64,000 nucleotides of DNA from a virus: positions 70,338-134,337 of IMG/VR virus record IMGVR_UViG_3300032893_000006. The stretch is one strand, 5' to 3'. Under the pieces are notes generated by a model. That model was not told the DNA's origin and did not search any database. It was given only the letters and a program-made list of their open reading frames with translations. Numbering within the stretch: position 1 is the first letter of the stretch; each line of letters opens with the position of its first letter. Positions 45,035-60,273 of this stretch are shown here, piece by piece. The position numbers and the translations under genes were made by a program.

Positions 45035-45041
45035 TTTTCAC

Positions 45042-45945: not shown

Positions 45946-45946
45946 A

Positions 45947-46562: not shown

Positions 46563-46568
46563 GAATTT

Positions 46569-46835
46569 ATGAAACTCGAATTCATTCCGTGGTCAGAAAA
46601 CGTCGAAATTCAACTGTGCGATGACGACGGTTCCGTCATCGACAAGTTGTATACAGCGAATACAGAGATCGTTGTATCCAATCCCGGAGCAGATGCGGAG
46701 CACCTTTTTCATTACATGGATTGTGTACTTACGAAGCCAAGGATTGGTGGTGCTTTTGCCGATTATCACCCCTACTGGAAAGAACGCGAGGGAAAGCGAG
46801 CGGCCAGAGCGGCGAAGCTCGGACTGACGCAATAA
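46569..46835 (+). CDS. Hypothetical protein
   Basis: 88-aa ORF followed by a terminator. Confidence 0.55.
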   Translation: MKLEFIPWSENVEIQLCDDDGSVIDKLYTANTEIVVSNPGADAEHLFHYMDCVLTKPRIGGAFADYHPYWKEREGKRAARAAKLGLTQ

Positions 46836-46862
46836 AGCCGCCCAAACATCGGGCGGCTTTAT
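46834..46862. terminator. Bidirectional terminator
   Basis: AAAGCCGCCC/GGGCGGCTTT between convergent genes. Confidence 0.8.
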
Positions 46863-46897
46863 TGGGGATAGAGCACCTCTCGTAAGGTGATTTGATT

Positions 46898-48121
46898 TTA
46901 CGCTGCGCGCTTCAGCAGTGACAAGTGGATGAGTTTGCCGCCCAGTTCCACCGCTTCGCCGATGTGGCTGGCGCTGGTGAGGCCGGTGATGACCACCCGG
47001 TCGTTGCCATCTGCCTTGTGCTCGAAGATCACGTTCGCATCGAAGCTCTGAGCCAAGACCCGTGTGACCTGTTCGATGGCCTTCTCGGGCTTGTACTCGA
47101 ACACATCTTCCTGCTCTTCCTTGATGAGTTCGGTGCCCATGCGCTTCACGCTGTCCTTGTGGAGCGCTGCCCATGACTGATGAACTTCGAACAGTTCGAT
47201 GGTCTCGACGCCGCGATCCGTGATGAGCGAGATTCCCACCTGATCGTCATGAAGCTTGACCTTGCTGAGAATGTCATCGAGGTTCGCGGTGAAGATCGTG
47301 TCGTTGGCGACATAGCTGTCACGCGGCGGAGCAGCAGTGGCGGTGCGAATTAGTGGCGGAGCGAAAGGCGGCGATCCAGCAGATGCTCTCGCACTGCCAC
47401 GAATACCACCGGCACGCATCGGCCCGGAAGAACTGGTAGTGAAGCGCGGACGTGGTTGAGCGGATTCGAGCCGTGCTCTCAAGCTATCGAGGCCACCACC
47501 GCGAATCGGCTCGGCGGGTTCGAGACCTGCTTTTTCCATAGTAAAAGCGCCCAAGCCAGCGTCGGCGACGAAGCAGGTTGACTTCATCATATTGCTTGTG
47601 CTGACCATGTTCCAGTACGTGGTCTGGTCGAGCGGTGTATATCCAGCACCATACACGCCACGCTCGACATCGAGAGAGATCGTGCCGTGATAGCCGAAGT
47701 TGGCACCGCCACGAATTCCGTGCGAGGCGTGAACGCAGCGCGCATCGAGAGCAACTTCCTTGCCGGGGAACAGGATCGCGCTGCGCGTAATCGTGCGGCT
47801 CTGCGTTCCCTTTCCGGCGAACACAGTGCCGGAGCGAACGAAGACTTTTTGGTCGGTGTTGTTTTTGAGATTGACCTTGTTGATCATTCCCGAGTCAATT
47901 GCGGTGACTCCATCGGTCTCGGGATAGGTCAGGTAGTCGCGGCCAATTTCGCCATCGCGCAGGATCGGAAGAATCACAGCGAGCGCCTTGTCTTCCACGC
48001 GCTTGGGCTTGCCGAAGTGAAATCCCATGGCCTGCCCGATGAGGGTATCCATGATGTTGTCGAGGTTGACGGCTTGGTACTTGGTGAGGGCGGACGTAGA
48101 GGTACGGCGGATTGGTGCCAT
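46898..48121 (-). CDS. ARPP-1 / DUF6569-like protein
   Basis: VNLKNNTDQKVFVRSGTVFAGKGTQSR...ARCVHA pattern recognised from memory. Confidence 0.6.
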   Translation of the reverse strand: MAPIRRTSTSALTKYQAVNLDNIMDTLIGQAMGFHFGKPKRVEDKALAVILPILRDGEIGRDYLTYPETDGVTAIDSGMINKVNLKNNTDQKVFVRSGTVFAGKGTQSRTITRSAILFPGKEVALDARCVHASHGIRGGANFGYHGTISLDVERGVYGAGYTPLDQTTYWNMVSTSNMMKSTCFVADAGLGAFTMEKAGLEPAEPIRGGGLDSLRARLESAQPRPRFTTSSSGPMRAGGIRGSARASAGSPPFAPPLIRTATAAPPRDSYVANDTIFTANLDDILSKVKLHDDQVGISLITDRGVETIELFEVHQSWAALHKDSVKRMGTELIKEEQEDVFEYKPEKAIEQVTRVLAQSFDANVIFEHKADGNDRVVITGLTSASHIGEAVELGGKLIHLSLLKRAA

Positions 48122-48179
48122 GGAAGGTACTCCTTTTGTGGTCGAGTGGCCGTGGTTCTCCACGGTTCGACTTTGACTG

Positions 48180-48249
48180 ATAGTAGGCTAAATCTTGGAT
48201 TTGTCAAGAAAAATAGCCATTGACAAACTGCGGCCATCCGGGGTACTGT
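48180..48249. promoter_or_regulatory. Back-to-back divergent sigma70-type promoters
   Basis: Minus: TTGACA(48207)-N16-TACTAT; plus: TTGACA(48220)-N18-TACTGT. Confidence 0.7.
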
Positions 48250-48258
48250 GGAAAAGTC

Positions 48259-48333
48259 ATGAGATTGAACCGAGCCAATTCGAATCATCCAGCGCAAACG
48301 GTGGCAACACCGTTTCAGGGTGGTCGTATGTAG
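48259..48333 (+). CDS. Attenuator leader peptide 2 (MRLNRANSNHPAQTVATPFQGGRM)
   Basis: Codons AAC AAT CAT CCA GCG CAA ACG GCA ACA CCG TTT CAG GGT CGT match cluster 2 anticodons. Confidence 0.88.
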   Translation: MRLNRANSNHPAQTVATPFQGGRM

Positions 48334-48376
48334 GCTCGGCCTATTCATCGCAGCTTCGAGAAGCACGATGGGGAAG

Positions 48377-48411
48377 AAGGTCCGAGCCGAATGGTTCGGA
48401 CCTTTTGTTTT
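48377..48411 (+). terminator. Attenuator terminator 2
   Basis: AAGGTCCGAGCC/GGTTCGGACCTT plus TTGTTTT; 5' arm complementary to GGCTCGGCCT at 48333..48342. Confidence 0.85.
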
Positions 48412-48421
48412 GCGAGTTTAT

Positions 48422-48496
48422 TCCGGGGTAGCTCAAAGGCAGAGCGTCTGGCTGTTAACCAGATCGTTGGGGGTTCGAGTCCCTCCTCCGGAGCCA
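48422..48496 (+). tRNA. trnN: tRNA-Asn(GTT)
   Basis: Loop CTGTTAA; CCA. Confidence 0.96.
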
Positions 48497-48501
48497 GTTT
48501 A

Positions 48502-48620
48502 GATGTGTGACGTGCGGGGCCGCTTGTGTTAGTCCCCGTTTGATGGGCAGTGACGGCGACAAGAGCTTCGGGCCGTCTGAGTAAGTCCTTGATATGGAGA
48601 AGCGCTCCAGCGTCAGCATC
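48502..48620 (+). ncRNA. Unassigned structured RNA
   Basis: Closing stem plus three hairpins; possible loop-loop pairing CTTGT/ACAAG. Confidence 0.45.
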
Positions 48621-48634
48621 GCTGTTTGAGTAGT

Positions 48635-48708
48635 TGGCTCGTCGTTCAATGGCAGGACAGCGGTCTCTGGAACCGCATATCGGGGTTCAAGTCCCTGCGA
48701 GCCAGCCA
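48635..48708 (+). tRNA. trnQ: tRNA-Gln(CTG)
   Basis: Loop CTCTGGA; CCA. Confidence 0.95.
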
Positions 48709-48779
48709 AGATTTATGTGAGGATCGTTACAGCCGATTCGAAGAGTGTGTAACTCACAGCCTTCACATAGAAAGTTTGT

Positions 48780-48857
48780 TGGGGGATGGCAGAGCGGTCA
48801 ATTGCACTCGCCTTTGGAGCGAGAAGGCCGTGGGTTCGAATCCCACTCCCCCTGCCA
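48780..48857 (+). tRNA. trnQ: tRNA-Gln(TTG), U1:U72 mismatch
   Basis: Loop CTTTGGA; CCA. Confidence 0.9.
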
Positions 48858-49024
48858 AGTTTGGAGATGTTATGGAACAGGATGCCAAAGACGATCCATG
48901 GGAAACGCGTTGCTACATGGGGGGTGGTAGTGTTGGTGATGAATGTGAGGATCAACCTGAACCAACGCCACCAAAGACCTATCAGGAATATCTGAATTAT
49001 TTCGAAGTTGTGATTGAAATTTAA

Positions 49025-49100
49025 GCGGGTGTAATTCAGCGGCTAGAATGTCGCGTTGCCAACGCGAATATCGTGGGTTCGAGTCCCATCACCCGCTCCA
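49025..49100 (+). tRNA. trnG: tRNA-Gly(GCC)
   Basis: Loop TTGCCAA; U73; CCA. Confidence 0.96.
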
Positions 49101-49119
49101 AGTTTTTGAGGGTTGCGTC

Positions 49120-49314
49120 ATGATTTTGCAGCAAGTTGAACTCGCCAGCGGCAACGAAAGGATGGTGTGCTGGCTCGCTCGTGATCCACGAGTTAGAGTC
49201 GGCACCGTGATTTCGCTCGCAAAGAGCGACAAGCGTTGGCGAGTTCAACAGCAGTACGGAGTGATCGACCACGAGGGAATCAAGCGGAAGTGGCCGGTCG
49301 GAGGAATGAGTTAG
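49120..49314 (+). CDS. Small hypothetical protein
   Basis: GAGGG RBS; 64-aa ORF between tRNAs. Confidence 0.5.
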   Translation: MILQQVELASGNERMVCWLARDPRVRVGTVISLAKSDKRWRVQQQYGVIDHEGIKRKWPVGGMS

Positions 49315-49315
49315 T

Positions 49316-49391
49316 GCTGGTGTAGCTCAAGTGGTAGAGCACTCGCCTCGTAAGCGAGAGGTTGGGTCTTCGAGTGACCTCACCAGCCCCA
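49316..49391 (+). tRNA. trnT: tRNA-Thr(CGT)
   Basis: Loop CTCGTAA; CCA. Confidence 0.93.
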
Positions 49392-49403
49392 GTTTGGAGG
49401 TGA

Positions 49404-49952
49404 ATGATGGCGTTACCGAAAAGAGGTGTCTTGTTGCTGACCAACTGCAACGAGCCCATCAGCATCATCACCGGACGTCGCGCCCTAACGATGGTAACTA
49501 AGGGCGTCTGCACAGTCGTAGTGCCAACCAGCATTCGGGTGTGCCCCGGGGTGTACCTGCCGTCCGTAATTCGGTTGATGGAATACAAAAGGATTCCGTA
49601 CCGGACGCAGCAGGTGACTCGGAAGAACATTTTGGTTCGAGACGGGTACCGCTGTATGTACTGCGGCACGAGGAAGGATGGCTCTGAGCTTGAGTTAGAG
49701 CACGTCATTCCGAAGAGCAGAGGCGGAAAGAATACGTGGGAGAACTTAGTTGCAGCATGTGCACCATGTAACCGGCGCAAGAACGACAGGACGCCGGAGG
49801 AAGCGGGAATGAAGTTGATTCACAAGCCGCTACCTGTGACGGTTCACACGGCGAAGCTTTTGCTGAGACAGATCGGTTCCGAAGTGAACGAGTGGAAGCC
49901 ATTCTTGTGGAACGACAGTCAGGGTGACACAAGATTCCAGTTCGTGCACTAG
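49404..49952 (+). CDS. HNH endonuclease (HNH_5/McrA-like)
   Basis: RDGYRCMYCG...LEHVIPKSRGGKNTWENLVAACAPCNRRK. Confidence 0.92.
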   Translation: MMALPKRGVLLLTNCNEPISIITGRRALTMVTKGVCTVVVPTSIRVCPGVYLPSVIRLMEYKRIPYRTQQVTRKNILVRDGYRCMYCGTRKDGSELELEHVIPKSRGGKNTWENLVAACAPCNRRKNDRTPEEAGMKLIHKPLPVTVHTAKLLLRQIGSEVNEWKPFLWNDSQGDTRFQFVH

Positions 49953-49973
49953 GAAGGCGATCCAATATTTTGA

Positions 49974-50050
49974 GCCGGGTTAGCTCATCGTGGCAGAGCG
50001 GCGGTTTTGTAAACCGCAGGCGAACAGTTCAAGCCTGTTACCCGGCCCCA
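49974..50050 (+). tRNA. trnT: tRNA-Thr(TGT)
   Basis: Loop TTTGTAA; CCA. Confidence 0.92.
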
Positions 50051-50056
50051 TTTTGT

Positions 50057-50131
50057 GGGGACTATCGTTCAGTGGTAGGACGCGTGATTGTGGCTCACGA
50101 CACCGGAGTTCAATTCTCCGTAGTCCCCCCA
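50057..50131 (+). tRNA. trnH: tRNA-His(GTG) with encoded G-1
   Basis: Loop TTGTGGC; G-1:C73; CCA. Confidence 0.95.
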
Positions 50132-50140
50132 ATAAGTTTC

Positions 50141-50216
50141 GGGGCAGTAGCTCAGATGGGAGAGCGCGCGCATCGCAAGCGCGAGGCCGAGAGTTCGATT
50201 CTCTCCTGCTCCACCA
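50141..50216 (+). tRNA. trnA: tRNA-Ala(CGC)
   Basis: G3:U70; loop ATCGCAA; CCA. Confidence 0.95.
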
Positions 50217-50218
50217 AG

Positions 50219-50302
50219 TTTCCGGTCGTTTTATTGTGGCAAGACGCCGTCCTTTTCGCGAAGGATGGAGATTGAGGGATGGCCCACCTCACCGGAAAGC
50301 CA
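50219..50302 (+). ncRNA. Non-canonical tRNA-like RNA (8-bp acceptor, 4-bp T-like stem, GCCA end)
   Basis: TTTCCGGT/ACCGGAAA-G-CCA; 8-bp anticodon-position stem with 6-nt loop; no TTC T loop. Confidence 0.6.
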
Positions 50303-50313
50303 ATTGAAGTTTT

Positions 50314-50391
50314 GGGCCTCTAGCTCATCTTTGGGAGAGCACTCGCCTTGCAAGCGAGAGGTGATCGGTTCGAGACCGATGAGGTCCACCA
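50314..50391 (+). tRNA. trnA: tRNA-Ala(TGC)
   Basis: G3:U70; loop CTTGCAA; CCA. Confidence 0.95.
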
Positions 50392-50466
50392 AGTTTGTGA
50401 CGGCCCTGTGGTAGCAGGGTGCCTACCAGCCGACCAGAGAACTCTCAGGATAGCGTCACAGTTTTT

Positions 50467-50541
50467 GGACTCGTAGCTCCAAGGTAGAGCGGGACCCTGA
50501 AGAGGTTCGCGTTGCTGGTTCAAGTCCAGTCGAGTCCACCA
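50467..50541 (+). tRNA. trnF: tRNA-Phe(GAA)
   Basis: Loop CTGAAGA; CCA. Confidence 0.93.
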
Positions 50542-50542
50542 T

Positions 50543-50618
50543 CGGGAAGTGGCCAAGCGGTAAGGCTCACGTCTGGGGGGCGTGTAATGCGTGAGTTCGA
50601 ATCTCACCTTCCCGACCA
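50543..50618 (+). tRNA. trnP: tRNA-Pro(GGG)
   Basis: C1:G72, A73; CT followed by G-run loop; CCA. Confidence 0.92.
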
Positions 50619-50631
50619 AGTTTGTAAGTAT

Positions 50632-50709
50632 CAGGGTATAGCTCAGTTTGCGTAGAGCGCGCGGTTCGGGTCCGCGAGGCCGGGGGTTCAAATCCCTCTA
50701 CCCTGACCA
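50632..50709 (+). tRNA. trnP: tRNA-Pro(CGG)
   Basis: Loop TTCGGGT; CCA. Confidence 0.94.
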
Positions 50710-50721
50710 GTTTTTAAGTTT

Positions 50722-50798
50722 CGGGACTGGGCGCGGCTTGGTAGCGCTCCTGTTTTGGGAACAGGCGGTCGTGGGTTCGAATCCCACAGTCCCGACCA
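50722..50798 (+). tRNA. trnP: tRNA-Pro(TGG)
   Basis: Loop TTTGGGA; CCA. Confidence 0.94.
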
Positions 50799-50820
50799 GT
50801 TTTTATAGCCTAGACATGGT

Positions 50821-51411
50821 ATGATTTTACTATTGGCTAGGCTATGTAGAAAATGTGAAGCGATTATCCCTCTTTGGGTAAACATAGGCGGGAGACTCAG
50901 GAATCTGCAGCGACGCAAATTTTGTCTTAAATGTTCAGAATTTGGGGCTCATAATACATCTTCACAATTGGGTGTTGAAGTTAAGAAGAAACGCCCACCA
51001 AAATGTGCTTGCGGAGAAGCCGACCCAAAGAAGTTTTACGGTAGAAAAGCGACGGTCTGTGGGCGATGTCATAATCGATACACGACGCGAAGAGGATCGC
51101 TAGTAAAGCGCAAGGCGCGAGAACATCTCGGTGGCAAGTGTAAGTATTGTGGCTATTCGCAGTTTGATGTATCGCTTGATATACATCACACCGACCCATC
51201 AAAAAAAGACCCGGCCTTTCAAAGTATGAGGGGGTGGTCTTGGAAGCGCATTGTAAAGGAACTTGAATTGTGTGAATTGGTTTGTAAGAACTGTCACACC
51301 GCATTGCATTGTGGTTTGATAAGCCGGGGTTGTAGCTCAGTTGGATTCAGAGCGGCGGTCTACGAAACCGCAGGTCACAGGTTCGAGTCCTGTCAGCCCC
51401 ACCATTTGTAA
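50821..51411 (+). CDS. Zn-finger HNH endonuclease reading through tRNA-Arg(ACG)
   Basis: CKYCGY...LDIHHTDP...CELVCKNCHTALH; first in-frame stop lies after the tRNA. Confidence 0.8.
   Translation: MILLLARLCRKCEAIIPLWVNIGGRLRNLQRRKFCLKCSEFGAHNTSSQLGVEVKKKRPPKCACGEADPKKFYGRKATVCGRCHNRYTTRRGSLVKRKAREHLGGKCKYCGYSQFDVSLDIHHTDPSKKDPAFQSMRGWSWKRIVKELELCELVCKNCHTALHCGLISRGCSSVGFRAAVYETAGHRFESCQPHHL
51326..51404 (+). tRNA. trnR: tRNA-Arg(ACG)
   Basis: Loop CTACGAA; CCA. Confidence 0.94.
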
Positions 51412-51442
51412 GAATCCACCAAGGAGGTGTATGGGATAAAAA

Positions 51443-51751
51443 TTGAAAAACTTGTCGATGTCTCAGCGTTGGGCTGATGCAGTAACAGAGTTCAGTGGCT
51501 CTTGGCCATTCATCATCTGGTTTACCGTGTTGGGCGTAATTTGGGTGCTTCTCAACGTGAGCCGCCTACTGGTTTTCGACCCATACCCATTCCTGTTTTT
51601 GAACTGGGTGTTGACGGTTATCAGCACCGTTCAGAGTCCGCTTATCATGCTGTCGCAGAACAGGCAGAATGAGCGGGATCGAGAGAATGTGCAGGAGATT
51701 CTTGCCAAGCTCGATGAGGCTCTGAAGAAGATGGAAATAGCGCGAAATTAA
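51443..51751 (+). CDS. DUF1003 family membrane protein
   Basis: WADAVTEFSGSWPF...FDPYPFLFLN...QSPLIMLSQNRQ. Confidence 0.88.
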   Translation: MKNLSMSQRWADAVTEFSGSWPFIIWFTVLGVIWVLLNVSRLLVFDPYPFLFLNWVLTVISTVQSPLIMLSQNRQNERDRENVQEILAKLDEALKKMEIARN

Positions 51752-51752
51752 A

Positions 51753-51781
51753 TTGCGCTCATGTTGGAGTTGTGATAGGGT
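51753..51781 (+). promoter_or_regulatory. Possible promoter of the Y-RNA/TROVE operon
   Basis: TTGCGC-N17-TAGGGT. Confidence 0.4.
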
Positions 51782-51796
51782 AAAAAGGTTGAGTTT

Positions 51797-51902
51797 CCGC
51801 TGACAGTGTTGCTTACATGGGTGGGTAACCACCATTTCACTGCTAATGAAAATCCGGCGCGAGCCGGGTGTACCCGAAAGGGTTGCAGCGCGACTACAGC
51901 GG
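51797..51902 (+). ncRNA. Y-RNA-like element 1
   Basis: CCGCTG/CAGCGG ends; TGAC..TACATG and CGACTACA motifs; arm TTTCA-CTGCTAA-TGAAA. Confidence 0.75.
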
Positions 51903-51917
51903 AGAGATTTTGAGTAT

Positions 51918-51992
51918 GGCTTGACTGTTTCGCATACATGTTGCTCTTGACAAGCGAACACGCCGAAAGGCAATGCGGAACGACTACAAGCC
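51918..51992 (+). ncRNA. Y-RNA-like element 2
   Basis: GGCTTG/CAAGCC ends; shared motifs; arm TTGCT-CTTGACA-AGCGA. Confidence 0.75.
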
Positions 51993-52001
51993 AGTAAGTT
52001 T

Positions 52002-52136
52002 GGGCTGACTGAGTTGCTTACATGTCCTTTGGAGACCGAGGTCGGAGGTTCGAATCCTTCATCGTCCACCAACAATGAGTAGACGGGCGATTAGCTCAGC
52101 GGTAGAGCGCGTAAACAAGCAGATCGACTACAGCCC
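52002..52136 (+). ncRNA. YrlA-type Y RNA (element 3; permuted tRNA domain)
   Basis: GGGCTG/CAGCCC ends; T arm precedes D arm; acceptor ATCGTCC/GGGCGAT closed by a linker. Confidence 0.85.
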
Positions 52137-52150
52137 AAAGATTTTGAGTT

Positions 52151-52270
<120 letters not shown>

Positions 52271-52277
52271 ATAAGAT

Positions 52278-52410
52278 GGGCCGGGTTCGTCTAAAAGCGA
52301 AACTTCCAGATTCGACTACAGCAGCAATGCTGACTGAAATTGGATACATGGATAAGACAATAGTTCTCGGAACTATGTTTGGAGGTTCGAATCCTTCACC
52401 CGGCTCCTAC
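52278..52410 (+). ncRNA. Y-RNA-like element 5, circularly permuted relative to the others
   Basis: GGGCCGGGT/ACCCGGCTC ends; CGACTACAGCA-gcaa-TGCTGAC internal hairpin; T arm. Confidence 0.78.
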
Positions 52411-52416
52411 AAGTTT

Positions 52417-52547
52417 GGATTGACTGCACGAGGATACATGATCTTGTTCCGGGGAAACCCGGCCCCCTCCACCACCATACCGGCTTCATTTACCAATGGG
52501 GGGCGCGCCGCAAGGCTGCAAATCTAAACCGCGAGCGACTACAATCC
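52417..52547 (+). ncRNA. Y-RNA-like element 6
   Basis: GGATTG/CAATCC ends; shared motifs; T and D positions carry GAAA/GCAA hairpins; acceptor-like stem with CCA. Confidence 0.75.
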
Positions 52548-52569
52548 AAAAGTTTTGTCCGGGGGAAAC

Positions 52570-53121
52570 ATGGCAAGTGGCGACAGGTTTTATCAGCTAC
52601 AGTTGCGCCATCGCGACGCTCTAGTCGGCGACATTGGCTCAATCCTCAAAATTGAAGGAATCGTGATCGGCGGCGAAGGCGCACGTGGAACGCTTATGCT
52701 TCCAGATGCGCCACACGACGTTTTCACGCGTGATTCGCTGTGGCTAACTATCGAAGAGTGGTCAGACTGGCTCCAGAGATCGGACAATCCCGACATACTC
52801 GTGCAGGGATCACTGGAGAAGGTCTTCCACCGTAAGCTCAGGTACGACATCTCCGGCGCAGTCCAGCAGAAGGTGTGGGTTGCTGACGGATGCAAGTGTA
52901 TGTACTGCTTCCGTCCGATGGGGGAAGTGCAGCTTACAATCGATCACTTCGTTCCGCTTGAAAGTGGTGGCAAGAACGATCAATCGAATTACCTGTCGGC
53001 GTGCCGAAAGTGCAACAAGGACAAGGGCGGCATGAGTCCGCGGCAATGGTGTGGTCTGGACAAAGTCAAATGGGATTACGATTCTTACGTCCAGTATCTG
53101 ATCGAACGCAAACTTCCATAA
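52570..53121 (+). CDS. HNH endonuclease with uncharacterised N-terminal domain
   Basis: CKCMYC...LTIDHFVPLESGGKNDQSNYLSACRKCNKDK. Confidence 0.88.
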   Translation: MASGDRFYQLQLRHRDALVGDIGSILKIEGIVIGGEGARGTLMLPDAPHDVFTRDSLWLTIEEWSDWLQRSDNPDILVQGSLEKVFHRKLRYDISGAVQQKVWVADGCKCMYCFRPMGEVQLTIDHFVPLESGGKNDQSNYLSACRKCNKDKGGMSPRQWCGLDKVKWDYDSYVQYLIERKLP

Positions 53122-53146
53122 CTACCCACTAAAGGAGGGTGACTAT

Positions 53147-54652
53147 ATGGGTGAGCAGGGAATCACGAAGCAGCGTATCTTCGCGGAGCTTTCAAAGTCT
53201 TCGCATGGCAAGCTCTCTGAGTATGTTGAGATCGCCAAGCAGGCCATCGCAACTGAGGGCGACTTCTTTCAGCACTTGATCGCGTGGAATCACATTCACG
53301 GACAGGTTCGTGACAGCAAGGTTGCGTTGCCGGTGCTCGGTCTGGCTTTCGAGAGCAATCTCGATCTGCTCGATAACAGCGTCGCGCATCTTGCCAAGCT
53401 CGGTCCTCGTGAGTTGAAGAGGGCTTTCGAGTTCGTTCGCGAGATTCGTCCGCAGGGCAAGATGTCGCGGATGGATCGCGTGATCTGCGCATACCTCCGT
53501 CAGAAGGAGGAGTCGCGCAACTGGGATCACATCGCGATCCAGCACCGTGCCGTACTAAAGGCGCTCTACGCGCTCTCTCGTACCGGCCCGGGCAACCGTC
53601 GTGTAGCTGCCGTGATCTCCGGCCAGTGGAAGGAGAAGATCGGTGACACGGTGGTCGTGACCAAGCTTGCTCTTCCGAAGGGCTCTGTGTTCGAGGCTGT
53701 AGCTAAGCTCAAGGACATGGCTCCTGTTGAGGCTGCTGGCACGATCATGCGCTACAAGATTCCGTTCCTGATCGCCATGGGTGCCCTTGGCTTCAAGGTG
53801 AAGGAGACCGATCTTGTGATGGCGCTGATCGAGCAGATGTCGCCGACTGAGCTTGTGACCAACACGAAGATGCTGGAGAAGCTCGGCATGAAGACCAACC
53901 CGGTGCTCCGTGCTGCATTTGAGAAGGGCATGGAGAAGGCTGCAACGTCCAAGCAGAACACGCTGAAGACGACGGCGGCTGTCGAGGCCGTAGAGGACGA
54001 GGGGCTGAAGGATAAGCTACGCGGCCTGCAGAAGAAGCAGATCGCGGCGGCTGGTGGTCCCGATGGCAACTGGCTTGTGCTGGCCGACAAGAGCGGCAGC
54101 ATGGCGGCGGCAATCGAGATCGCAAGGCACGTGTCCGCGTCTCTGGCTCAGTTCGTCAAGGGCAAGGTGTATCTCGTGTTCTTCGACACCTCGCCGATGA
54201 CGGTCGATGTAACTGGCTTATCGCTCGATCAGATTAAGATGGCGACGCGCCACATCACAGCAGGCGGCGGCACTTCAATCGGCGTGGGCCTGAGCAGGAT
54301 GTTGAAGGAGAAGGTGGAGATCGACGGTATCGCAATCGTCTCTGACGGCGGCGAGAACACCGCACCGCTCTTTGCTGATGTCTACAAGAAGTATTCGGCA
54401 TTCGCAGGCAAGGATGTGCCGGTCTACTTCTATGACACCTACGGCGACACCCACCTCACCCAGTCATTGAATGCGGCTGGCATTGAGATGCAGAAGTTCG
54501 ACGTTCGCAGCGGCAAGGTCGACTACTACAGCATTCCGAACCTCGTGCAGACGATGCGCTCGAACCCCTATAGCCTCGTCGACGAGATCATGGCTACCCC
54601 GCTCGTATCACTGAGCGAGGTGTTGAAGGATGCAGAACTGGTAGGTGCCTGA
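53147..54652 (+). CDS. rsr: Ro60/Rsr-like TROVE plus vWA protein (divergent)
   Basis: Helical N-terminal region with MSPTELVTNTKMLEKLG (TROVE-like); vWA MIDAS DKSGS, GGTSIG, VSDGGEN; adjacent Y-RNA-like array. Confidence 0.75.
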   Translation: MGEQGITKQRIFAELSKSSHGKLSEYVEIAKQAIATEGDFFQHLIAWNHIHGQVRDSKVALPVLGLAFESNLDLLDNSVAHLAKLGPRELKRAFEFVREIRPQGKMSRMDRVICAYLRQKEESRNWDHIAIQHRAVLKALYALSRTGPGNRRVAAVISGQWKEKIGDTVVVTKLALPKGSVFEAVAKLKDMAPVEAAGTIMRYKIPFLIAMGALGFKVKETDLVMALIEQMSPTELVTNTKMLEKLGMKTNPVLRAAFEKGMEKAATSKQNTLKTTAAVEAVEDEGLKDKLRGLQKKQIAAAGGPDGNWLVLADKSGSMAAAIEIARHVSASLAQFVKGKVYLVFFDTSPMTVDVTGLSLDQIKMATRHITAGGGTSIGVGLSRMLKEKVEIDGIAIVSDGGENTAPLFADVYKKYSAFAGKDVPVYFYDTYGDTHLTQSLNAAGIEMQKFDVRSGKVDYYSIPNLVQTMRSNPYSLVDEIMATPLVSLSEVLKDAELVGA

Positions 54653-55050
54653 TGGCGAAGCGAAAGGTTGGAACCAAGACGATGTCATATCCGAAGAGGA
54701 ATATCTTTGTCGATCTGTCAAAGCAGAAGATCGCGGAAAGGAGGAAGACCATGCTTCAGAACTTCAAGAGTTTTAACATCGACACGGCTGATCTTGACGA
54801 GCTTGTCGAGCTTGCAACGTTCGGTCGCCAGTTCCGTGCCGAGCACGAGGCTCTCAATGTTCCCGTACCTGAGTACGTTGATGACAACCTGCGTGCGATC
54901 CGCAAGGAGATCGACAGCAAGCTCTCTGACCGTCGTGCACAGCGTGTTCGTGAGTTGAAGGCACAGCGCGACAGCCTCAAGACCGCACAGGAGCGCCGCG
55001 ATGCAATCGACAAGGAGCTTGCCGCACTTGGCGAGCCGGTCGGCGCGTAA
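54652..55050 (+). CDS. Coiled-coil hypothetical protein coupled to TROVE
   Basis: 132 aa; TGATG overlap. Confidence 0.6.
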   Translation: MAKRKVGTKTMSYPKRNIFVDLSKQKIAERRKTMLQNFKSFNIDTADLDELVELATFGRQFRAEHEALNVPVPEYVDDNLRAIRKEIDSKLSDRRAQRVRELKAQRDSLKTAQERRDAIDKELAALGEPVGA

Positions 55051-55073
55051 GCTTCGTTGCTCCACTTTTGCCA

Positions 55074-55108
55074 CGGCTACCGGGGGAACCCGGTAGCCTT
55101 CTTTTTTG
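55074..55108 (+). terminator. Rho-independent terminator
   Basis: GGCTACCGGG/CCCGGTAGCC plus TTCTTTTTT. Confidence 0.85.
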
Positions 55109-55145
55109 CCTGCTTACGCCGCAAAGTGCGGCTACAATGCTTCTC

Positions 55146-55631
55146 ATGGCGGAATTTCGGATTCGATTTATCAACTCCGGCAACTCGTTCGTGGGCCGGT
55201 CAATCGACTGGGTGACAAACTCCCTGATGGACCATGTGGAGATCGTCACCGATGCGGGTTGGTATCTTGGTGCGCGCAGTAGTGGCGGAGTGAAGTCAAG
55301 ACCACCGGATTACTGCAAGCCGACATGGGAACGCCGCTATGCGATCCCGTGCACCGATGAGCAGCACAAGAAGATCATGGACTACGCTTACTCGAAGGTG
55401 GGAACAAAATACAACTTCGGCGACATTGCCGGGTTGCTGTTTCGCAACAGGCGGTTCAATTCGCCAAGCAAGTTGATTTGCTCTGAGTTTGTGATTAACG
55501 CAGGACAGCTTGCCGGTGGGATCATGCTCTTGAACGTGAAGGTGCCTTACTACTCATATCTGGTGACGCCGGAGATGCTTCACTTGAGCCCGGTCCTCAG
55601 TGGACACTGCTACTACAAATACGCGGCATAA
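55146..55631 (+). CDS. Permuted papain-like NlpC/P60 (YiiX-like) amidase
   Basis: DHVEI (His) before KVGTKYNF...LICSEFV (Cys). Confidence 0.8.
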   Translation: MAEFRIRFINSGNSFVGRSIDWVTNSLMDHVEIVTDAGWYLGARSSGGVKSRPPDYCKPTWERRYAIPCTDEQHKKIMDYAYSKVGTKYNFGDIAGLLFRNRRFNSPSKLICSEFVINAGQLAGGIMLLNVKVPYYSYLVTPEMLHLSPVLSGHCYYKYAA

Positions 55632-55638
55632 AATCTTC

Positions 55639-55667
55639 TTGCAAAGAGTCGGAAAGTGGTGTAACGT
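55639..55667 (+). promoter_or_regulatory. Sigma70-type promoter of tRNA cluster 3
   Basis: TTGCAA-N17-TAACGT. Confidence 0.7.
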
Positions 55668-55677
55668 GGTTCCTGTT

Positions 55678-55746
55678 ATGACGCAGACCTTCAAACACGG
55701 GATAACCAGAATGACCAAGCGGGTCATTTGGGGAATCGTGTGCTAG
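55678..55746 (+). CDS. Attenuator leader peptide 3 (MTQTFKHGITRMTKRVIWGIVC)
   Basis: Codons ACC AAA GGG ATA AGA ATG AAG CGG ATT TGG GGA ATC GTG match cluster 3 anticodons. Confidence 0.88.
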   Translation: MTQTFKHGITRMTKRVIWGIVC

Positions 55747-55777
55747 GGGTCTGAAAGTCCATTTTCTGGATTTCCAT

Positions 55778-55806
55778 GACCCCGGCTCAGGCCGGGGTTT
55801 TCATTT
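55778..55806 (+). terminator. Attenuator terminator 3
   Basis: GACCCCGGC/GCCGGGGTT plus TTCATTT; GACCCC also complementary to GGGGTC at 55746..55751. Confidence 0.82.
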
Positions 55807-55820
55807 GCTGTTTGACATAC

Positions 55821-55896
55821 AGGGGCGTAAGCTCAGCGGCTAAACTGTCGGTCTCCAAAACCGAACTCGTCGGTTCGAATCCGACCGCCCCTGCCA
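55821..55896 (+). tRNA. trnW: tRNA-Trp(CCA)
   Basis: Loop CTCCAAA; CCA. Confidence 0.96.
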
Positions 55897-55976
55897 AGAT
55901 TGATGTTCCCTTGCATCACCGGGAAGACCACGGACACTGAACAACCGTGCCATCTTCCCGGCGCAAGGTTAGTTTC

Positions 55977-56053
55977 GCCAGTGTAGCTCAGTCGGCCAGA
56001 GCGCGGCATTCATAACGCCGAGGTCCCGAGTTCGATGCTCGGCACTGGCACCA
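55977..56053 (+). tRNA. trnM: tRNA-Met(CAT), elongator type (Ile2 not excluded)
   Basis: Loop TTCATAA; G1:C72; CCA. Confidence 0.88.
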
Positions 56054-56059
56054 AGTAAT

Positions 56060-56152
56060 GCCGGAATCCTCGGGTGAGGCGCGGGTCCTTATAGCTCCCG
56101 TTGACGGTAGATGACCGTTGCGAGGTGGGTTCAAGTCCCCCTTCCGGTCCCA
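56060..56152 (+). tRNA. Atypical tRNA with TAT anticodon (Ile-like)
   Basis: Loop CTTATAG; tiny D arm, long variable arm, weak anticodon stem; CCA. Confidence 0.6.
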
Positions 56153-56157
56153 AGTTT

Positions 56158-56234
56158 GCGCAGCTAACTCAACTGGTTAGAGTATTCGCCTCTTAAGCGA
56201 AAGGTTCCGAGTTCGATCCTCGGGCTGCGCACCA
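56158..56234 (+). tRNA. trnK: tRNA-Lys(CTT)
   Basis: Loop CTCTTAA; CCA. Confidence 0.95.
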
Positions 56235-56294
56235 AGTTTTGTAGTACAGGAGAAGTGAGATGCGAAAACGTGTAGACGGTTCCGACAAACACAT

Positions 56295-56382
56295 GGGATC
56301 GTACTCGAATTGGCTGCAGAGACCTGACTTTTAATCAGCGGGAGAAATCCCAATGTGGGTTCAAGTCCCACCGGTCCCACCA
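56295..56382 (+). tRNA. trnK: tRNA-Lys(TTT) with long variable arm
   Basis: Loop CTTTTAA; extra GGGA-gaaa-TCCC arm; CCA. Confidence 0.85.
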
Positions 56383-56396
56383 AATATAATCGAGAG

Positions 56397-56816
56397 ATGG
56401 CTAACCACCACACAAAAGACAAAGGCGATCTTGCAGTTCTGAAAGTGCAGGCTGATTTATGCGAACAAGGCTTGATTGTATGCACGCCACAGACTGAACA
56501 TGCACTATTTGATATTGTCGCCTACTGCGGTTCTCGGTTCTGGAAAGTGCAAGTGAAATTTTGCTCGGCTCCAGATGGGGTATTGATCGGAACGTGCCAG
56601 CGCACATGGGCAGATAAGCACGGTAATCATATTCAGAAATACGCTGATGGCGATTTTGATGTTCTTGCACTGTATTGCCCGGAAACCGATGAGTGTTATT
56701 ACATTCCTTGGGAAAAATGCAATAAGCGTTGTATTTCTTTGAGGGTTACACCCCCTCTCAATGGAGCAAAGAAGTATTTACGCGCAGGAGATTTTAGAAA
56801 GTTTATGCCCCTGTAG
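56397..56816 (+). CDS. PD-(D/E)XK homing-type endonuclease (I-Ssp6803I-like)
   Basis: KDKGDLA...FDIV...KVQVK...DFDVLALYCP; stop lies inside the next tRNA. Confidence 0.82.
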   Translation: MANHHTKDKGDLAVLKVQADLCEQGLIVCTPQTEHALFDIVAYCGSRFWKVQVKFCSAPDGVLIGTCQRTWADKHGNHIQKYADGDFDVLALYCPETDECYYIPWEKCNKRCISLRVTPPLNGAKKYLRAGDFRKFMPL

Positions 56817-56883
56817 CTCAGGTGGACAGAGCATCCGCCTTCTAAGTGGAGGGTCGCAAGTTCGAATCTTGCCGGGGGCACCA
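56807..56883 (+). tRNA. trnR: tRNA-Arg(TCT)
   Basis: Loop CTTCTAA; CCA. Confidence 0.96.
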
Positions 56884-56888
56884 GATTT

Positions 56889-56966
56889 GCCGCTGTATCT
56901 CTCCCGTCTCCTAAGCGGGCAAGAGTAAACTGGATGATGCCGGTTCGACTCCGGTCAGCGGCTCCA
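56889..56966 (+). tRNA. D-armless tRNA with CCT anticodon (Arg-like)
   Basis: Acceptor, anticodon (CTCCTAA) and T arms and CCA intact; 7-nt linker replaces the D arm; 19-nt variable region. Confidence 0.65.
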
Positions 56967-56969
56967 GTT

Positions 56970-57365
56970 ATGAACACACACGAACGAGGCACGGCCAGTG
57001 AAAGCGCTGTAATCACGTATCTTCTGAATAAAGGGCACGCTGTTTCGATACCGCTCGGCTCTAGAAGATACGACCTCATCGTTGACGATGAGCTAGGGCT
57101 TCACAGGGTTCAAGTAAAGACGGGTAGGATCGTTGATGGTTGCGTGAGATTTAACGCATGTTCGGTGGATGGTACAGCTAAACCAGCCAAGAAACGCTAC
57201 TACACGAGGGATGAAGTCGATATGTTTGTGGTTTTCTGTCCGCAGAATGGAAAGTTTTACCGCGTTTTTTTGGAGGATGGTAGGACAGATTACTCGCTGA
57301 GAATTTCCCCGGCGAAGAATGGAATGAAGAAGGGCATTCGGAATGCTGTAGACTATGAATTTTAA
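56970..57365 (+). CDS. PD-(D/E)XK homing-type endonuclease (I-Ssp6803I-like)
   Basis: RGTASE...YDLIVD...RVQVKT...YTRDEVDMFVVFCP. Confidence 0.85.
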   Translation: MNTHERGTASESAVITYLLNKGHAVSIPLGSRRYDLIVDDELGLHRVQVKTGRIVDGCVRFNACSVDGTAKPAKKRYYTRDEVDMFVVFCPQNGKFYRVFLEDGRTDYSLRISPAKNGMKKGIRNAVDYEF

Positions 57366-57370
57366 GTTTT

Positions 57371-57447
57371 GCGCGAATAGCTCAGGCGGATAGAGCGGAA
57401 GTTTCCGAAGCTTCAGGCCGCAGGTTCGAATCCTGCTTCGCGCACCA
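57371..57447 (+). tRNA. trnR: tRNA-Arg(CCG)
   Basis: Loop TTCCGAA; CCA. Confidence 0.95.
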
Positions 57448-57461
57448 GATAGGAGGCGACG

Positions 57462-57686
57462 TTGAAGCGGTGGACGTCCGAAGTTGTTGATCGCGGCACG
57501 CACAGAGTGATGGGAAAGAGATTTCACCTTATGAGCCGCGTGGCTGTTCGGGAAGATGGAGCCAAGACACTTTTCGTTGCAAAGGGTCGCAATCCTCAGG
57601 AGTGTCTTGCTGTGCTTAACACGTTTGTCTGGCCCGAGTGTGAATGTTGGCAAGGCCAACCGCCATGCAGAATGCATCAAGCATAG
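57462..57686 (+). CDS. Small hypothetical protein
   Basis: AGGAGG RBS; TTG start; fits between tRNAs. Confidence 0.55.
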   Translation: MKRWTSEVVDRGTHRVMGKRFHLMSRVAVREDGAKTLFVAKGRNPQECLAVLNTFVWPECECWQGQPPCRMHQA

Positions 57687-57692
57687 AGTTTT

Positions 57693-57768
57693 GCGGAGTT
57701 AGATCAGCGGCTAGATCGTCTGCCTTACAAGCAGGTCGTCGGGGGTTCGAGTCCCTCCCTCCGCACCA
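57693..57768 (+). tRNA. trnV: tRNA-Val(TAC)
   Basis: Loop CTTACAA; CCA. Confidence 0.95.
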
Positions 57769-57774
57769 AGTTTT

Positions 57775-57848
57775 GTCGATGTAGCTCAGTGGCAGAGCCG
57801 TCGCATGGTAAGCGACAGACTCGGGTTCGATTCCCGACATCGGCTCCA
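57775..57848 (+). tRNA. trnT: tRNA-Thr(GGT)
   Basis: Loop ATGGTAA; CCA. Confidence 0.94.
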
Positions 57849-57849
57849 T

Positions 57850-57923
57850 GTACCTGTCGTCCAACGGTAGGACGCACGCCCGATTAGCGTGTCATCGCGG
57901 TTCAAATCCGTGCAGGTACACCA
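57850..57923 (+). tRNA. trnI: tRNA-Ile(GAT), C33, atypical body
   Basis: Loop CCGATTA; A73; CCA. Confidence 0.82.
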
Positions 57924-57973
57924 TATTCTAAGTAATCATGCTATGCTCTATCGACAGGTTACATGGAGCATAA

Positions 57974-58546
57974 ATGCCGAATTGCAAATTATGCGCTGAG
58001 TATTTTCCAGTTCAAGAAACAGTGGATGGGAAAAAATTCCGGTACCACTCTCGCAAGTATTGCTTTACATGTTCTCCTCGGGGCCAACGCAACACGCATA
58101 AACTTGAACGCGATTTAGTAACGGGTAAAATTGTAAAGCTTCGTCCGAACTACTTCAGTGGACCCCGAACACGGCTAGTGGCGATTGGTGCTGCAGTCGA
58201 GTGTCGCGAGTGTGGAAGAAGCTATTACTATAATCCTAACGCGGGGCACCAAACGGAGATTTGCAATTCGTGTAATGCAAACCGTAAACGCGTAACGGTC
58301 AAGAAGAAGTGCGTTGAATACAAGGGGGGTGAGTGCGAACGCTGCGGTTACTCCAAGTGCTTACGAGCCCTTGAGTTTCATCACAGAGAACCAAAAAAGA
58401 AAGAGTTTTCCATTGGCACAAAAATGTCTTGGTCGTGGTCGCGACTACGGAAAGAACTCGATAAATGTCGCCTGTTGTGCAGCAATTGTCATTGTGAGGT
58501 GCACGAAGAAGAAGATAGAGCGCGTAAATTTGGAAGGAATTCCTGA
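57974..58546 (+). CDS. Zn-finger HNH endonuclease (paralogue of 50821..51411)
   Basis: CERCGY...LEFHHREP...CRLLCSNCHCEVH. Confidence 0.88.
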   Translation: MPNCKLCAEYFPVQETVDGKKFRYHSRKYCFTCSPRGQRNTHKLERDLVTGKIVKLRPNYFSGPRTRLVAIGAAVECRECGRSYYYNPNAGHQTEICNSCNANRKRVTVKKKCVEYKGGECERCGYSKCLRALEFHHREPKKKEFSIGTKMSWSWSRLRKELDKCRLLCSNCHCEVHEEEDRARKFGRNS

Positions 58547-58587
58547 TAAGGGTGAGGTCGACAGTTCAATCCTGTCCACGCCAACCA
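58543..58587 (+). pseudogene. 3' half of a tRNA-Ile(GAT)
   Basis: CTGATAA-GGGTG-AGGTC-GACAG-TTCAATC-CTGTC-CACGCCA-A-CCA; no 5' half found. Confidence 0.8.
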
Positions 58588-58650
58588 AAGTTTAGTAACC
58601 GTTACGAACGATTTCGTGACTACGCCAAAAAGTTCTGGCAGAATTTCCGG

Positions 58651-59115
58651 ATGAAAAAGAATCTGTTGTACATGAAGTATCTTGCTCGACACAAGTGGTT
58701 CGTCTTGGTTGCCGGGTTGAAGTTCAAGGTTCCGCTGCTGAGGTTGATCTTTCACGACTGGTCGAAGCTGATGCCGGTCGAGTGGGTGGCTTACAGAGAG
58801 TTCTTCTACGGCGAGCGAACAGATGAAGTGAAGGAAGCATTCAAGCGCGCTTGGGCTCATCACATTCACCTGAATCCTCACCACTGGAACCACTGGATGT
58901 ACACCGACGAGGATGGCACCAAGACGCTGCAGATGCCAGAGACCTACGTCAGAGAGATGCTGGCAGACTGGTACGGAGCCGGTCGAGCAATCCGAGGAAC
59001 GTGGAGCGCCGATTGGTGGTACGAAAAGAACAAGGAAACGATTCTCCTGCACCCGACGACCCGGCTCTGGGTCGAGGCCGATCTTCAAAGGGCGCAACGG
59101 GAATTTAAGTGGTAA
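58651..59115 (+). CDS. DUF5662-like His-rich (HD-related) protein
   Basis: RHK...HDWSKL...HHIHLNPHHW...EMLADW. Confidence 0.78.
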   Translation: MKKNLLYMKYLARHKWFVLVAGLKFKVPLLRLIFHDWSKLMPVEWVAYREFFYGERTDEVKEAFKRAWAHHIHLNPHHWNHWMYTDEDGTKTLQMPETYVREMLADWYGAGRAIRGTWSADWWYEKNKETILLHPTTRLWVEADLQRAQREFKW

Positions 59116-59118
59116 TGA

Positions 59119-59196
59119 GCGACCGTAGCCAAGTCCGGTAAGGCACGAGGCTTCCACCCTCGCATTGCGTGAGTTCAAATCTCACCGGTCGCTCCA
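59119..59196 (+). tRNA. trnG: tRNA-Gly(TCC)
   Basis: Loop CTTCCAC; U73; CCA. Confidence 0.94.
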
Positions 59197-59219
59197 TCCC
59201 TCCGATATAATTCCCCACA

Positions 59220-59582
59220 ATGAAAAAAGTGACGTATGCCAAGTTTTGGACGATGTTTGAACCTTTCGGTTGGGAGATCGACATTGTCTTTGTGACCGAT
59301 GTTGCTGGCTATGCGCGCCGATTCAAATACGCACACAAGGCCGATTGGGAAGCTTTCGCATGTACGGACTACGAAAAAAGAAAAACAACCATCGTACTGC
59401 CGTGGGATGTGAGTGCTGGTGTGGTAGCCCACGAGGCGTACCACTGCGTGGTGGCCTGTTTGCAAGCTTGCGCCGTGGTGGATGAGGAAGCCGCAGCATA
59501 CCATTTGCAATATCTGGTCGAGGAGATCGGAGATTTCTGGCGCGAAAGAAAGAAAAAGCGACGTTTCTTCATCTCTAAATAG
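59220..59582 (+). CDS. Small HExxH metallopeptidase-like protein
   Basis: VVAHEAYH...DEEAAAY. Confidence 0.65.
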   Translation: MKKVTYAKFWTMFEPFGWEIDIVFVTDVAGYARRFKYAHKADWEAFACTDYEKRKTTIVLPWDVSAGVVAHEAYHCVVACLQACAVVDEEAAAYHLQYLVEEIGDFWRERKKKRRFFISK

Positions 59583-59649
59583 CCAGCGAAATTGTTAACG
59601 TGCTACACTTCCGGCACGGAAACTGCGCGCGTCAAGTATACTGCCATCC

Positions 59650-60273
59650 ATGGACGCGGAAACAAAAATTCAGATAGCGCGAATAGGTAGCACTCCTGCT
59701 GTTTCTCCCGTTAGACAAATGCTTTGGGAGAGAGAAGGCAAGAAATGCCACTGGTGTCACCAACCGACTCGCTTACATCCATTTAAAGCAGATGGAAGCT
59801 ACGATGCGAACGCATGGGACAAGGCGACTGTCGATCATGTCATACCGCGCTCTAAAGAGGGTACAAACGATCTCTCAAATTTGGTTTCTGCGTGCAACCT
59901 TTGTAACAACCGGCGCGGCCACGAAGATCAGTGCGGTCTCCCCGATGGCTCGATGCTTGGCAAGTACGATCCCAGTAAGGGGATGACATACAAGGGGCCA
60001 AAAAGGCGTGTCGCCCTTAGTGGGGATGACAAGAAGGCCATCATGGCCGGGAAATTGCCGCCAACCGTCAAGCATAGCGCGGAAGATATTTTGCGCATTC
60101 AACGCGATCAGGCCCTCCGGCAAGTGATGCTTTTGCGAAAAGATAAGGAAATTCTAAGGCAGACAATCACCGCGCAAGAAACCACAATAAAGCAACTCCA
60201 ATTCCAGATTTCTGAGTTCAGCGTCTGGCGTCTTTTACGCATCCGGATTGCTGAATGGATCAGGCCAAAATAA
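59650..60273 (+). CDS. HNH endonuclease with coiled-coil tail
   Basis: CHWCH...ATVDHVIPRSKEGTNDLSNLVSACNLCNNRR. Confidence 0.88.
   Translation: MDAETKIQIARIGSTPAVSPVRQMLWEREGKKCHWCHQPTRLHPFKADGSYDANAWDKATVDHVIPRSKEGTNDLSNLVSACNLCNNRRGHEDQCGLPDGSMLGKYDPSKGMTYKGPKRRVALSGDDKKAIMAGKLPPTVKHSAEDILRIQRDQALRQVMLLRKDKEILRQTITAQETTIKQLQFQISEFSVWRLLRIRIAEWIRPK

Follow-up and report, generated by a model that had tools for sequence, protein, structure and literature searches.

A putative leader-peptide attenuator that samples the codons of the phage tRNA cluster it precedes

Why should a short open reading frame (ORF) and an intrinsic terminator stand directly in front of a row of phage tRNA genes? The question arises at positions 55639–55806 of a 64,000-nucleotide stretch of viral DNA (the window), which is the final 64 kb of a 134-kb IMG/VR virus record. 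In the window there are 39 tRNA genes together with a permuted tmRNA; they form clusters and all lie on the plus strand. Within the segment lie, in this order, a promoter-like site, a short ORF, a small hairpin and an intrinsic terminator, and tRNA-Trp, the first gene of what we call cluster 3, follows at 55821 (Table 1). A first-pass annotation, made from the letters alone, had read the segment as an attenuator. Our analysis leads us to regard the unit as probably a ribosome-mediated (leader-peptide) transcription attenuator that gates cluster 3. Judged from its sequence and from folding models, the phage would probably make this tRNA set only when ribosomes slow on the codons that the set decodes. 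Its host is probably an acidobacterium, as judged only from a distant relative, phage Tunturi_5.

Table 1. Coordinates in the window of the cluster-3 leader unit, the genes behind it and the two paralogous units.
Feature	Position	Strand	Remark
−35-like hexamer, putative leader promoter	55639–55644	+	Same hexamer class at all three window leaders
−10-like hexamer, weak consensus match	55662–55667	+	17-nt spacer; surrounding block conserved in G001 and G002
Leader ORF, 22 codons and TAG (55744–55746)	55678–55746	+	Putative codon sampler for cluster-3 tRNAs
Region 1, codons 3–5	55684–55691	+	Paired with region 2 in the minimum-energy folds of ribosome-free RNA
Apical hairpin within the ORF	55706–55732	+	Near-invariant sequence; loop length varies in multiples of three
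Region 2, antiterminator 5′ strand	55746–55753	+	Overlaps the last base of the stop codon
Small hairpin inside the antiterminator helix	55755–55773	+	Formed in both predicted conformations
Region 3, antiterminator 3′ strand	55775–55783	+	Includes the first bases of the terminator 5′ arm
Intrinsic terminator	55778–55806	+	Stem-loop 55778–55799, T-run to 55806; found by consensus terminator scan
Conserved short motif between terminator and tRNA-Trp	55808–55816	+	In all relatives
tRNA cluster 3	55821–59196	+	12 tRNAs, tRNA-Trp first
Paralogous unit 1	40787–40967	+	Leader ORF 40826–40906 and terminator, before the Leu/Cys/Ser/Tyr cluster
Paralogous unit 2	48220–48412	+	Leader ORF 48259–48333 and terminator, before the Asn/Gln/Gly/Thr/His/Ala/Phe/Pro/Arg cluster

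The anatomy of the segment is that expected of leader-peptide attenuators. It contains a 5′-proximal short ORF with a predicted transcript start, a terminator between this ORF and the first regulated gene, an antiterminator that excludes the terminator and whose 5′ strand can be reached by a ribosome at the stop codon, a protecting 1:2 pairing that overlaps the ORF, and regulatory codons that match what the controlled genes produce. In each of the window's three leaders (hexamers at 40787, 48220 and 55639), the −35-like hexamer precedes the ATG by exactly 39 nt. From the promoter-like hexamers the transcript is predicted to start 3–4 nt 5′ of the ATG, so that the message would be nearly leaderless, and the window's own copy carries no Shine–Dalgarno sequence. 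The predicted fold of the segment beats all of 200 shuffled versions (z −4.6). Its apical hairpin is a candidate for an RNA polymerase pause hairpin or for the apex of the 1:2 pairing, and the relatives carry a hairpin of different sequence at the position equivalent to the small hairpin between regions 2 and 3. The short motif behind the terminator has counterparts at 13423–13431 of contig L004, at about 1625–1635 of L009 and at 10780–10788 of L021; it is not an obvious promoter, because its distance to the tRNA varies. A minus-strand ORF at 55554–55727 was considered and rejected, as its start arises from the palindromic hairpin and the rest of it is not conserved in relative G002.

The genes behind the terminator are unusual in several respects. 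Cluster 3 begins with Trp, Met, an odd tRNA(UAU) (56060–56152), Lys(CUU), Lys(UUU) and Arg(UCU), and continues with a D-armless tRNA(CCU) (56889–56966), Arg(CCG), Val(UAC), Thr(GGU), Ile(GAU) and Gly(UCC). Endonuclease genes are interspersed among these tRNAs; two of them, of the PD-(D/E)XK type (Pfam PF11645; 56355–56816 and 56934–57365), probably encode homing endonucleases. We assume that the cluster is a single transcription unit, although internal promoters may exist where the endonuclease genes interrupt it. In relative G002 (L004 13434–13898) the 5′ half of a tRNA-Trp is followed by an HNH endonuclease ORF (13489–13872) and then by a complete tRNA-Trp call, an arrangement suggesting that the leading gene of the cluster has received an endonuclease insertion or has been partially duplicated. 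The tRNA-like gene at 56060–56152 is 92–93 nt long, ends in CCA and combines a UAU anticodon with a long extra arm. This form is kept with compensatory changes in three lineages (the window, L016 4711–4802 on the minus strand and L014 2600–2692), and other relatives carry a canonical 77–80 nt tRNA-Ile(UAU) in its place. D-armless genes likewise occur elsewhere: G001 has three in a row (UCU, CCU and CCG; L009, about 2063–2300), which Infernal scores as tRNAs and ARAGORN misses. Contigs L010 (3077–3150) and L012 (12866–12939) encode tRNAs with a UUA anticodon where others carry Lys(UUU), and L021 has two tRNAs with a CUA anticodon (824–897 and 12002–12077); these tRNAs, whose anticodons match stop codons, may be suppressors.

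The codon content of the leader ORF is the first evidence that links it to these genes. With cognate codons assigned under standard wobble rules, 15 of the 21 codons after the start are read by cluster-3 tRNAs, against a background of 0.25 (binomial P = 9 × 10−6); the six that are not are ACG, CAG, TTC, CAC, GTC and TGC. Of the 272 short ATG ORFs counted over the window's six frames, no other attains the leader's own-cluster codon fraction. The leader also covers 11 of the cluster's 12 tRNA species, where random ORFs of equal length cover a mean of 4.7 (P = 3 × 10−4). The first-pass annotation had singled out a 14-codon run (55699–55740) as read almost entirely by cluster-3 tRNAs, with GTC in doubt, and the count agrees: 13 of the 14 are cognate and GTC is the sole exception. 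It had also taken the single ATA codon as a sign that the odd tRNA(UAU) is functional. The codon is indeed there and is kept in all 10 leaders of this type among the close relatives, and a tRNA(UAU), in either the canonical or the 92–93 nt form, is found in the cluster of every relative whose cluster sequence was examined. Its further remark that AGG is absent holds for the window leader and fails in the relatives, where AGG is present in five of nine leaders.

A stronger argument than the codon count of a single leader is the specificity of all three leaders in the window, each of which matches its own cluster (codon counts against the three clusters of 14/5/5, 4/17/3 and 1/4/15; 3 × 3 chi-square p = 1.4 × 10−7). 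A further tRNA unit, that of Met, Asp and the tmRNA (44921–45972), has a promoter-like site that abuts tRNA-Met and carries neither leader ORF nor terminator; contig L012 shows the same leaderless arrangement. The leader thus appears as a control module that has been added to some tRNA units.

Comparison with other phages extends the own-cluster rule well beyond the window, to one phage in GenBank, two in IMG/VR and several metagenome contigs. The sole relative in GenBank, found by tRNA similarity, is the acidobacterial jumbo phage Tunturi_5 of Tunturiibacter, which has three syntenic clusters, each behind a short ORF and a terminator. Its leaders have no nucleotide similarity to those of the window, yet they match their own clusters, and the 3 × 3 matrix is again diagonal (p = 1 × 10−8). 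The Trp-led cluster of Tunturi_5 additionally carries tRNAs for Asp, Glu, Arg(ACG) and Val(GAC), and the 49-codon leader in front of it contains six Asp, two Glu, seven CGC and five GTC or GTT codons; the window leader has no Asp, Glu or CGC codon at all. An own-cluster match is also seen in G001 (p = 5 × 10−8), in metagenome contig L012 (p = 3 × 10−7) and in L021 (Fisher p = 1.5 × 10−5), the last of which was retrieved through a neighbouring protein, with no use of the leader. In the closer relatives the leader unit stands directly before tRNA-Trp throughout, and the other clusters, where they lie on the contig, have leaders of their own.

How the relatives were retrieved bears on how these comparisons are to be read. 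G001 and eight metagenome contigs were found by exact match to part of the ORF, so that the conservation of those 21–24 bases is partly a matter of ascertainment. G002 (L004), L021 and L023 were retrieved by a neighbouring vWA-domain protein, and the comparisons free of retrieval bias are those with G002, L021/L023 and Tunturi_5. A degenerate tRNA-Trp pattern search of IMG/VR returned no matches. The vWA-domain protein of the window (501 residues, 53147–54652) adjoins a weak Rfam match to the Y-RNA-like YrlA at 52036–52114.

A more distant case is Caulobacter phage RB23, in which a 39-residue annotated ORF, gp135 (L018 892–1011), lies just before a cluster of Pro, Thr, Lys, Leu, His, Ala, Ser and Trp tRNAs. 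Of its 38 residues after the start, 33 belong to the eight amino acids of that cluster; at the strict codon level the match is modest (22 of 38, p = 0.017 against a crude background). Repeated complementary blocks occur 3′ of gp135. Codon-matched leaders may exist in phiCbK-like phages as well.

The RNA between the ORF and the tRNAs can fold in alternative ways that would form a switch. In the predicted ribosome-free fold the ORF is one long irregular hairpin in which region 1 is paired with region 2, and the terminator forms. Alternatively, region 2 pairs with region 3, which includes the base of the terminator 5′ arm; together with the 1:2 pairing of codons 3–5 with the stop-codon strand, this would complete, at the level of sequence, the classical 1:2/2:3/3:4 layout. 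The overlap between the stop codon and a strand complementary to the terminator 5′ arm had been noticed at first reading and is real (55746–55751 against 55778–55783). In all nine homologues the antiterminator duplex has a predicted energy of −12 to −24 kcal/mol, about that of the terminator hairpin, and covers four to nine bases of the terminator 5′ arm. The strands also belong together lineage by lineage. Duplexes of strands 2 and 3 from the same leader are more stable than those between leaders (−17.7 versus −14.0 kcal/mol), with none of 20,000 permutations as good, and the same holds for strands 1 and 2 (−18.0 versus −14.0 kcal/mol; permutation p = 8.5 × 10−4). RNAalifold finds seven pairs with compensatory changes, 1:2 pairs among them (columns 16–18 with 79–81), and the independently retrieved L021 shows a matching pair of changes in the antiterminator.

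A terminator is present behind all 11 leaders examined. It is kept in the relatives with compensatory stem changes; its sequence varies by lineage, and the upstream strand varies along with it. The position of the stop codon follows one of two layouts, either abutting the antiterminator strand (this phage, L010, L015 and L017) or lying 12–20 nt after the start of that strand (G001, G002, L013 and L016). With either layout, a ribosome completing the ORF would be expected to cover the antiterminator strand. The initial reading of the segment as an attenuator is therefore borne out in silico by its anatomy (ORF and terminator), its conservation, the co-variation of the antiterminator across nine relatives, and a codon content that tracks the tRNA set; the comparison with related phages, which had been named as a way of checking it, finds the unit conserved, its ORF indels in frame and its pairings co-varying.

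We infer translation of the ORF, coupling of transcription to translation, and the direction and size of the response, and envision the following course of events. Transcription would begin a few bases ahead of the start codon (55678) and yield a nearly leaderless message, on which a ribosome would load. When the sampled aminoacyl-tRNAs are plentiful, this ribosome would reach the stop codon and cover region 2, so that the terminator forms before tRNA-Trp. RNA that carries no ribosome would terminate as well, through the pairing of region 1 with region 2. A ribosome stalled on a hungry codon, in contrast, would mask region 1 or open the long ORF hairpin; the freed region 2 would then pair with region 3 and withhold the base of the terminator 5′ arm, and RNA polymerase would read into the tRNA genes. 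Almost every tRNA of the cluster is represented in the ORF by about one codon, so that running short of any single tRNA would switch on the whole set. The tRNAs that accumulate would in turn restore termination, a negative feedback on decoding capacity.

To see where a stalled ribosome would act, we blocked a 31-nt footprint at each A-site position and refolded the leader in ViennaRNA, a model that contains neither kinetics nor sterics. With the terminator 3′ arm still untranscribed, the 5′ arm is sequestered with a probability of 0.84–0.97 for A-site codons 2–19, which falls to 0.4–0.6 once the A site is at one of the final three codons or the stop codon; most of the 11 leaders behave alike. 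With the whole leader at equilibrium, stalls at codons 4–11 lower the terminator probability to 0.05–0.37, from 1.0 in the ribosome-free RNA, whereas later stalls, those at the most conserved codons (14–22) included, leave termination unrelieved, since the model allows the outer 1:2 helix to close with the ribosome inside it. For the G001 homologue the equilibrium terminator probability never drops below 0.91. The equilibrium model suggests that sensing is most effective over the first half of the ORF, not along the run as a whole. Closure of a helix around a ribosome is a steric matter beyond the model, and the sensing zone may accordingly be either the first half or most of the ORF.

These models bear on a first alternative, that the product of the ORF matters for its amino-acid sequence, either as a functional micro-protein or as a nascent arrest peptide that responds, for example, to a small molecule as TnaC does, with the codon match being secondary. 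An eight-residue stretch of the peptide and its flank are almost invariant in the nine homologues, and a stall at this very stretch is not predicted to relieve termination at equilibrium. RNA structure or peptide function, and not the identity of the codons, could account for the near-invariant core, but its invariance is also in part a product of the way the homologues were retrieved. What is kept more broadly is the codon set: 11 tRNA species are represented by one or more codons apiece in all nine homologous leaders, while the order is not maintained, as ATA, ACC and AGA swap places between lineages and ATA has moved to codon 3 or 4 in G001 and G002. Such permutation of a constant set fits selection, at the sequence level, on the codons rather than on the peptide. 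At synonymous sites compared between the window and G002, identity extends to seven of seven codons, compared with 63% for the neighbouring gene, a weakly significant difference (p = 0.04); in the remaining homologues this test is biased by the exact-match retrieval. Moreover, each genome holds three paralogous leaders that encode unrelated peptides and obey the same own-cluster codon rule, and the Trp-led leader of Tunturi_5, again with an unrelated peptide, tracks the extra Asp, Glu and Arg tRNAs of its cluster. We thus consider a peptide function quite unlikely to be the explanation of the unit.

The second alternative keeps the RNA switch and removes the ribosome: a phage antitermination protein, a small RNA or a directly bound tRNA would operate the pairings, and the ORF would be incidental. 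The alternative pairings do exist whether or not the ORF is translated, and the lack of a Shine–Dalgarno sequence in the window copy agrees with an untranslated leader. The ORF nevertheless bears marks of translation. All indels within it among the nine homologues are multiples of three, whereas those outside it are not, and the lineages preserve a start codon in one of three ways: as an ATG 39 nt downstream of the −35-like site (this phage, L013 and L017), as a GTG 36 nt downstream of it (G001, G002, L011 and L021), or as an ATG behind a purine-rich, Shine–Dalgarno-like run (the L010 group and L015). One further frame is nearly stop-free in the homologues, and an open frame alone is not decisive. 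A switch driven by something other than the ribosome would also leave the codon-to-tRNA specificity unexplained, for this requires decoding. An Rfam cmscan of 40000–60000 at E values up to 1 gave no match, to the T-box or any other family, at 55639–55806 or at the other two leaders, and this holds for the covariance models of the Trp, His, Leu, Thr and Phe leader families. This second reading appears to us just as improbable as a peptide function.

A third alternative divides the locus into two: promoter, short ORF and terminator would produce a separate small RNA or peptide-gene transcript, and the tRNAs would be transcribed from elsewhere. In its favour, the terminator is strong at equilibrium when no ribosome is present (probability 1.0), and there is a precedent in the account of rnTrpL in PMC6614838, according to which terminated attenuator RNAs act in trans in other bacteria. 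Yet the T-run ends only 14 nt before tRNA-Trp, with no promoter-like site in between; the unit stands immediately before the first tRNA of the cluster in every genome and at all three clusters; and the antiterminator overlaps an arm of the terminator. We hold a separate transcript to be very improbable. Finally, a chance ORF beside the terminator of the upstream gene (55137–55631) is hardly credible: short ORFs and terminator-like hairpins are both common, and the consensus scan finds no excess of terminators in the region, but the codon-match statistics and the comparative data contradict it, the unit being kept in phages whose upstream genes differ.

If the attenuator reading is accepted, one may ask what shortage the leaders would be built to detect. 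A tentative and, in our judgement, rather doubtful proposal is that they sense a loss of tRNAs. The cause could be host defence, for instance anticodon nucleases acting on tRNA-Lys, tRNA-Arg and others, or a decay of host tRNAs that the phage induces. Ribosomes stalling at any of the sampled codons would then switch on the replacement set, and the D-armless and long-armed UAU tRNAs might escape the nucleases. The tRNA island would in that case be an inducible counter-defence circuit, which may be general in tRNA-rich phages; gp135 of RB23 is a possible instance.

Full-text literature searches found no description, in phages or elsewhere, of attenuation of tRNA genes, and the paper on the Tunturi phages (PMC11924767) mentions neither leaders nor attenuation. 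Should the attenuator reading be true, classical attenuation would extend to tRNA genes themselves, and at isoacceptor resolution: the phage would measure the speed of decoding codon by codon and make tRNAs on demand, with the leader as a compact natural device that reports how available each tRNA is. The purpose of the large tRNA sets of phages is debated; the usual proposals are that they compensate for codon usage, replace host tRNAs that have been degraded or evade defences that cleave tRNAs. This debate would become testable: the role of the tRNAs could be read from the conditions under which read-through is induced. Experiments are feasible, as a cultivable relative of like design is at hand in Tunturi_5 on Tunturiibacter.

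The leaders trpL, hisL, pheL and leuL consist of a short ORF with regulatory codons, the 1:2/2:3/3:4 pairing and an intrinsic terminator, and in these enterobacterial attenuators a ribosome at the stop codon favours termination while a stalled ribosome favours read-through. The phage unit resembles them in its promoter-proximal ORF of regulatory codons, its pairing topology and its terminator. It differs in that it precedes tRNA genes instead of biosynthetic enzymes, so that the operon supplies the very decoding capacity that is sensed; in that it holds one codon each for about 11 tRNA species rather than a run for one amino acid; and in being phage-borne and nearly leaderless, with no sequence or Rfam relationship to them. 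Closer in logic are the leaders of ilvGMEDA (Ile, Leu and Val) and thr (Thr and Ile), which likewise sample several amino acids, any shortage of which relieves termination. Those leaders sample two or three amino acids through repeated codons, whereas the phage leader samples nine and, unlike them, distinguishes isoacceptors (AAA from AAG, AGA from CGG), which points to the sensing of tRNA rather than of amino acid. T-box riboswitches also sense the status of tRNA and choose between terminator and antiterminator, but they bind the uncharged tRNA through a specifier loop, have no ORF and control synthetase and amino-acid genes. In mycobacteria, leaderless polycysteine short ORFs are summarised as cysteine-responsive attenuators (bioRxiv 10.1101/834739); on this summary description they share with the phage unit the leaderless start, the position at the 5′ end of an operon and the coupling of translation to downstream expression, and differ in sensing a single amino acid and in belonging to a cellular operon of protein-coding genes. 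By analogy, and as far as that summary goes, the nearest counterparts of the phage unit would be the multivalent ilv and thr leaders and, for its leaderless aspect, the mycobacterial polycysteine ORFs.
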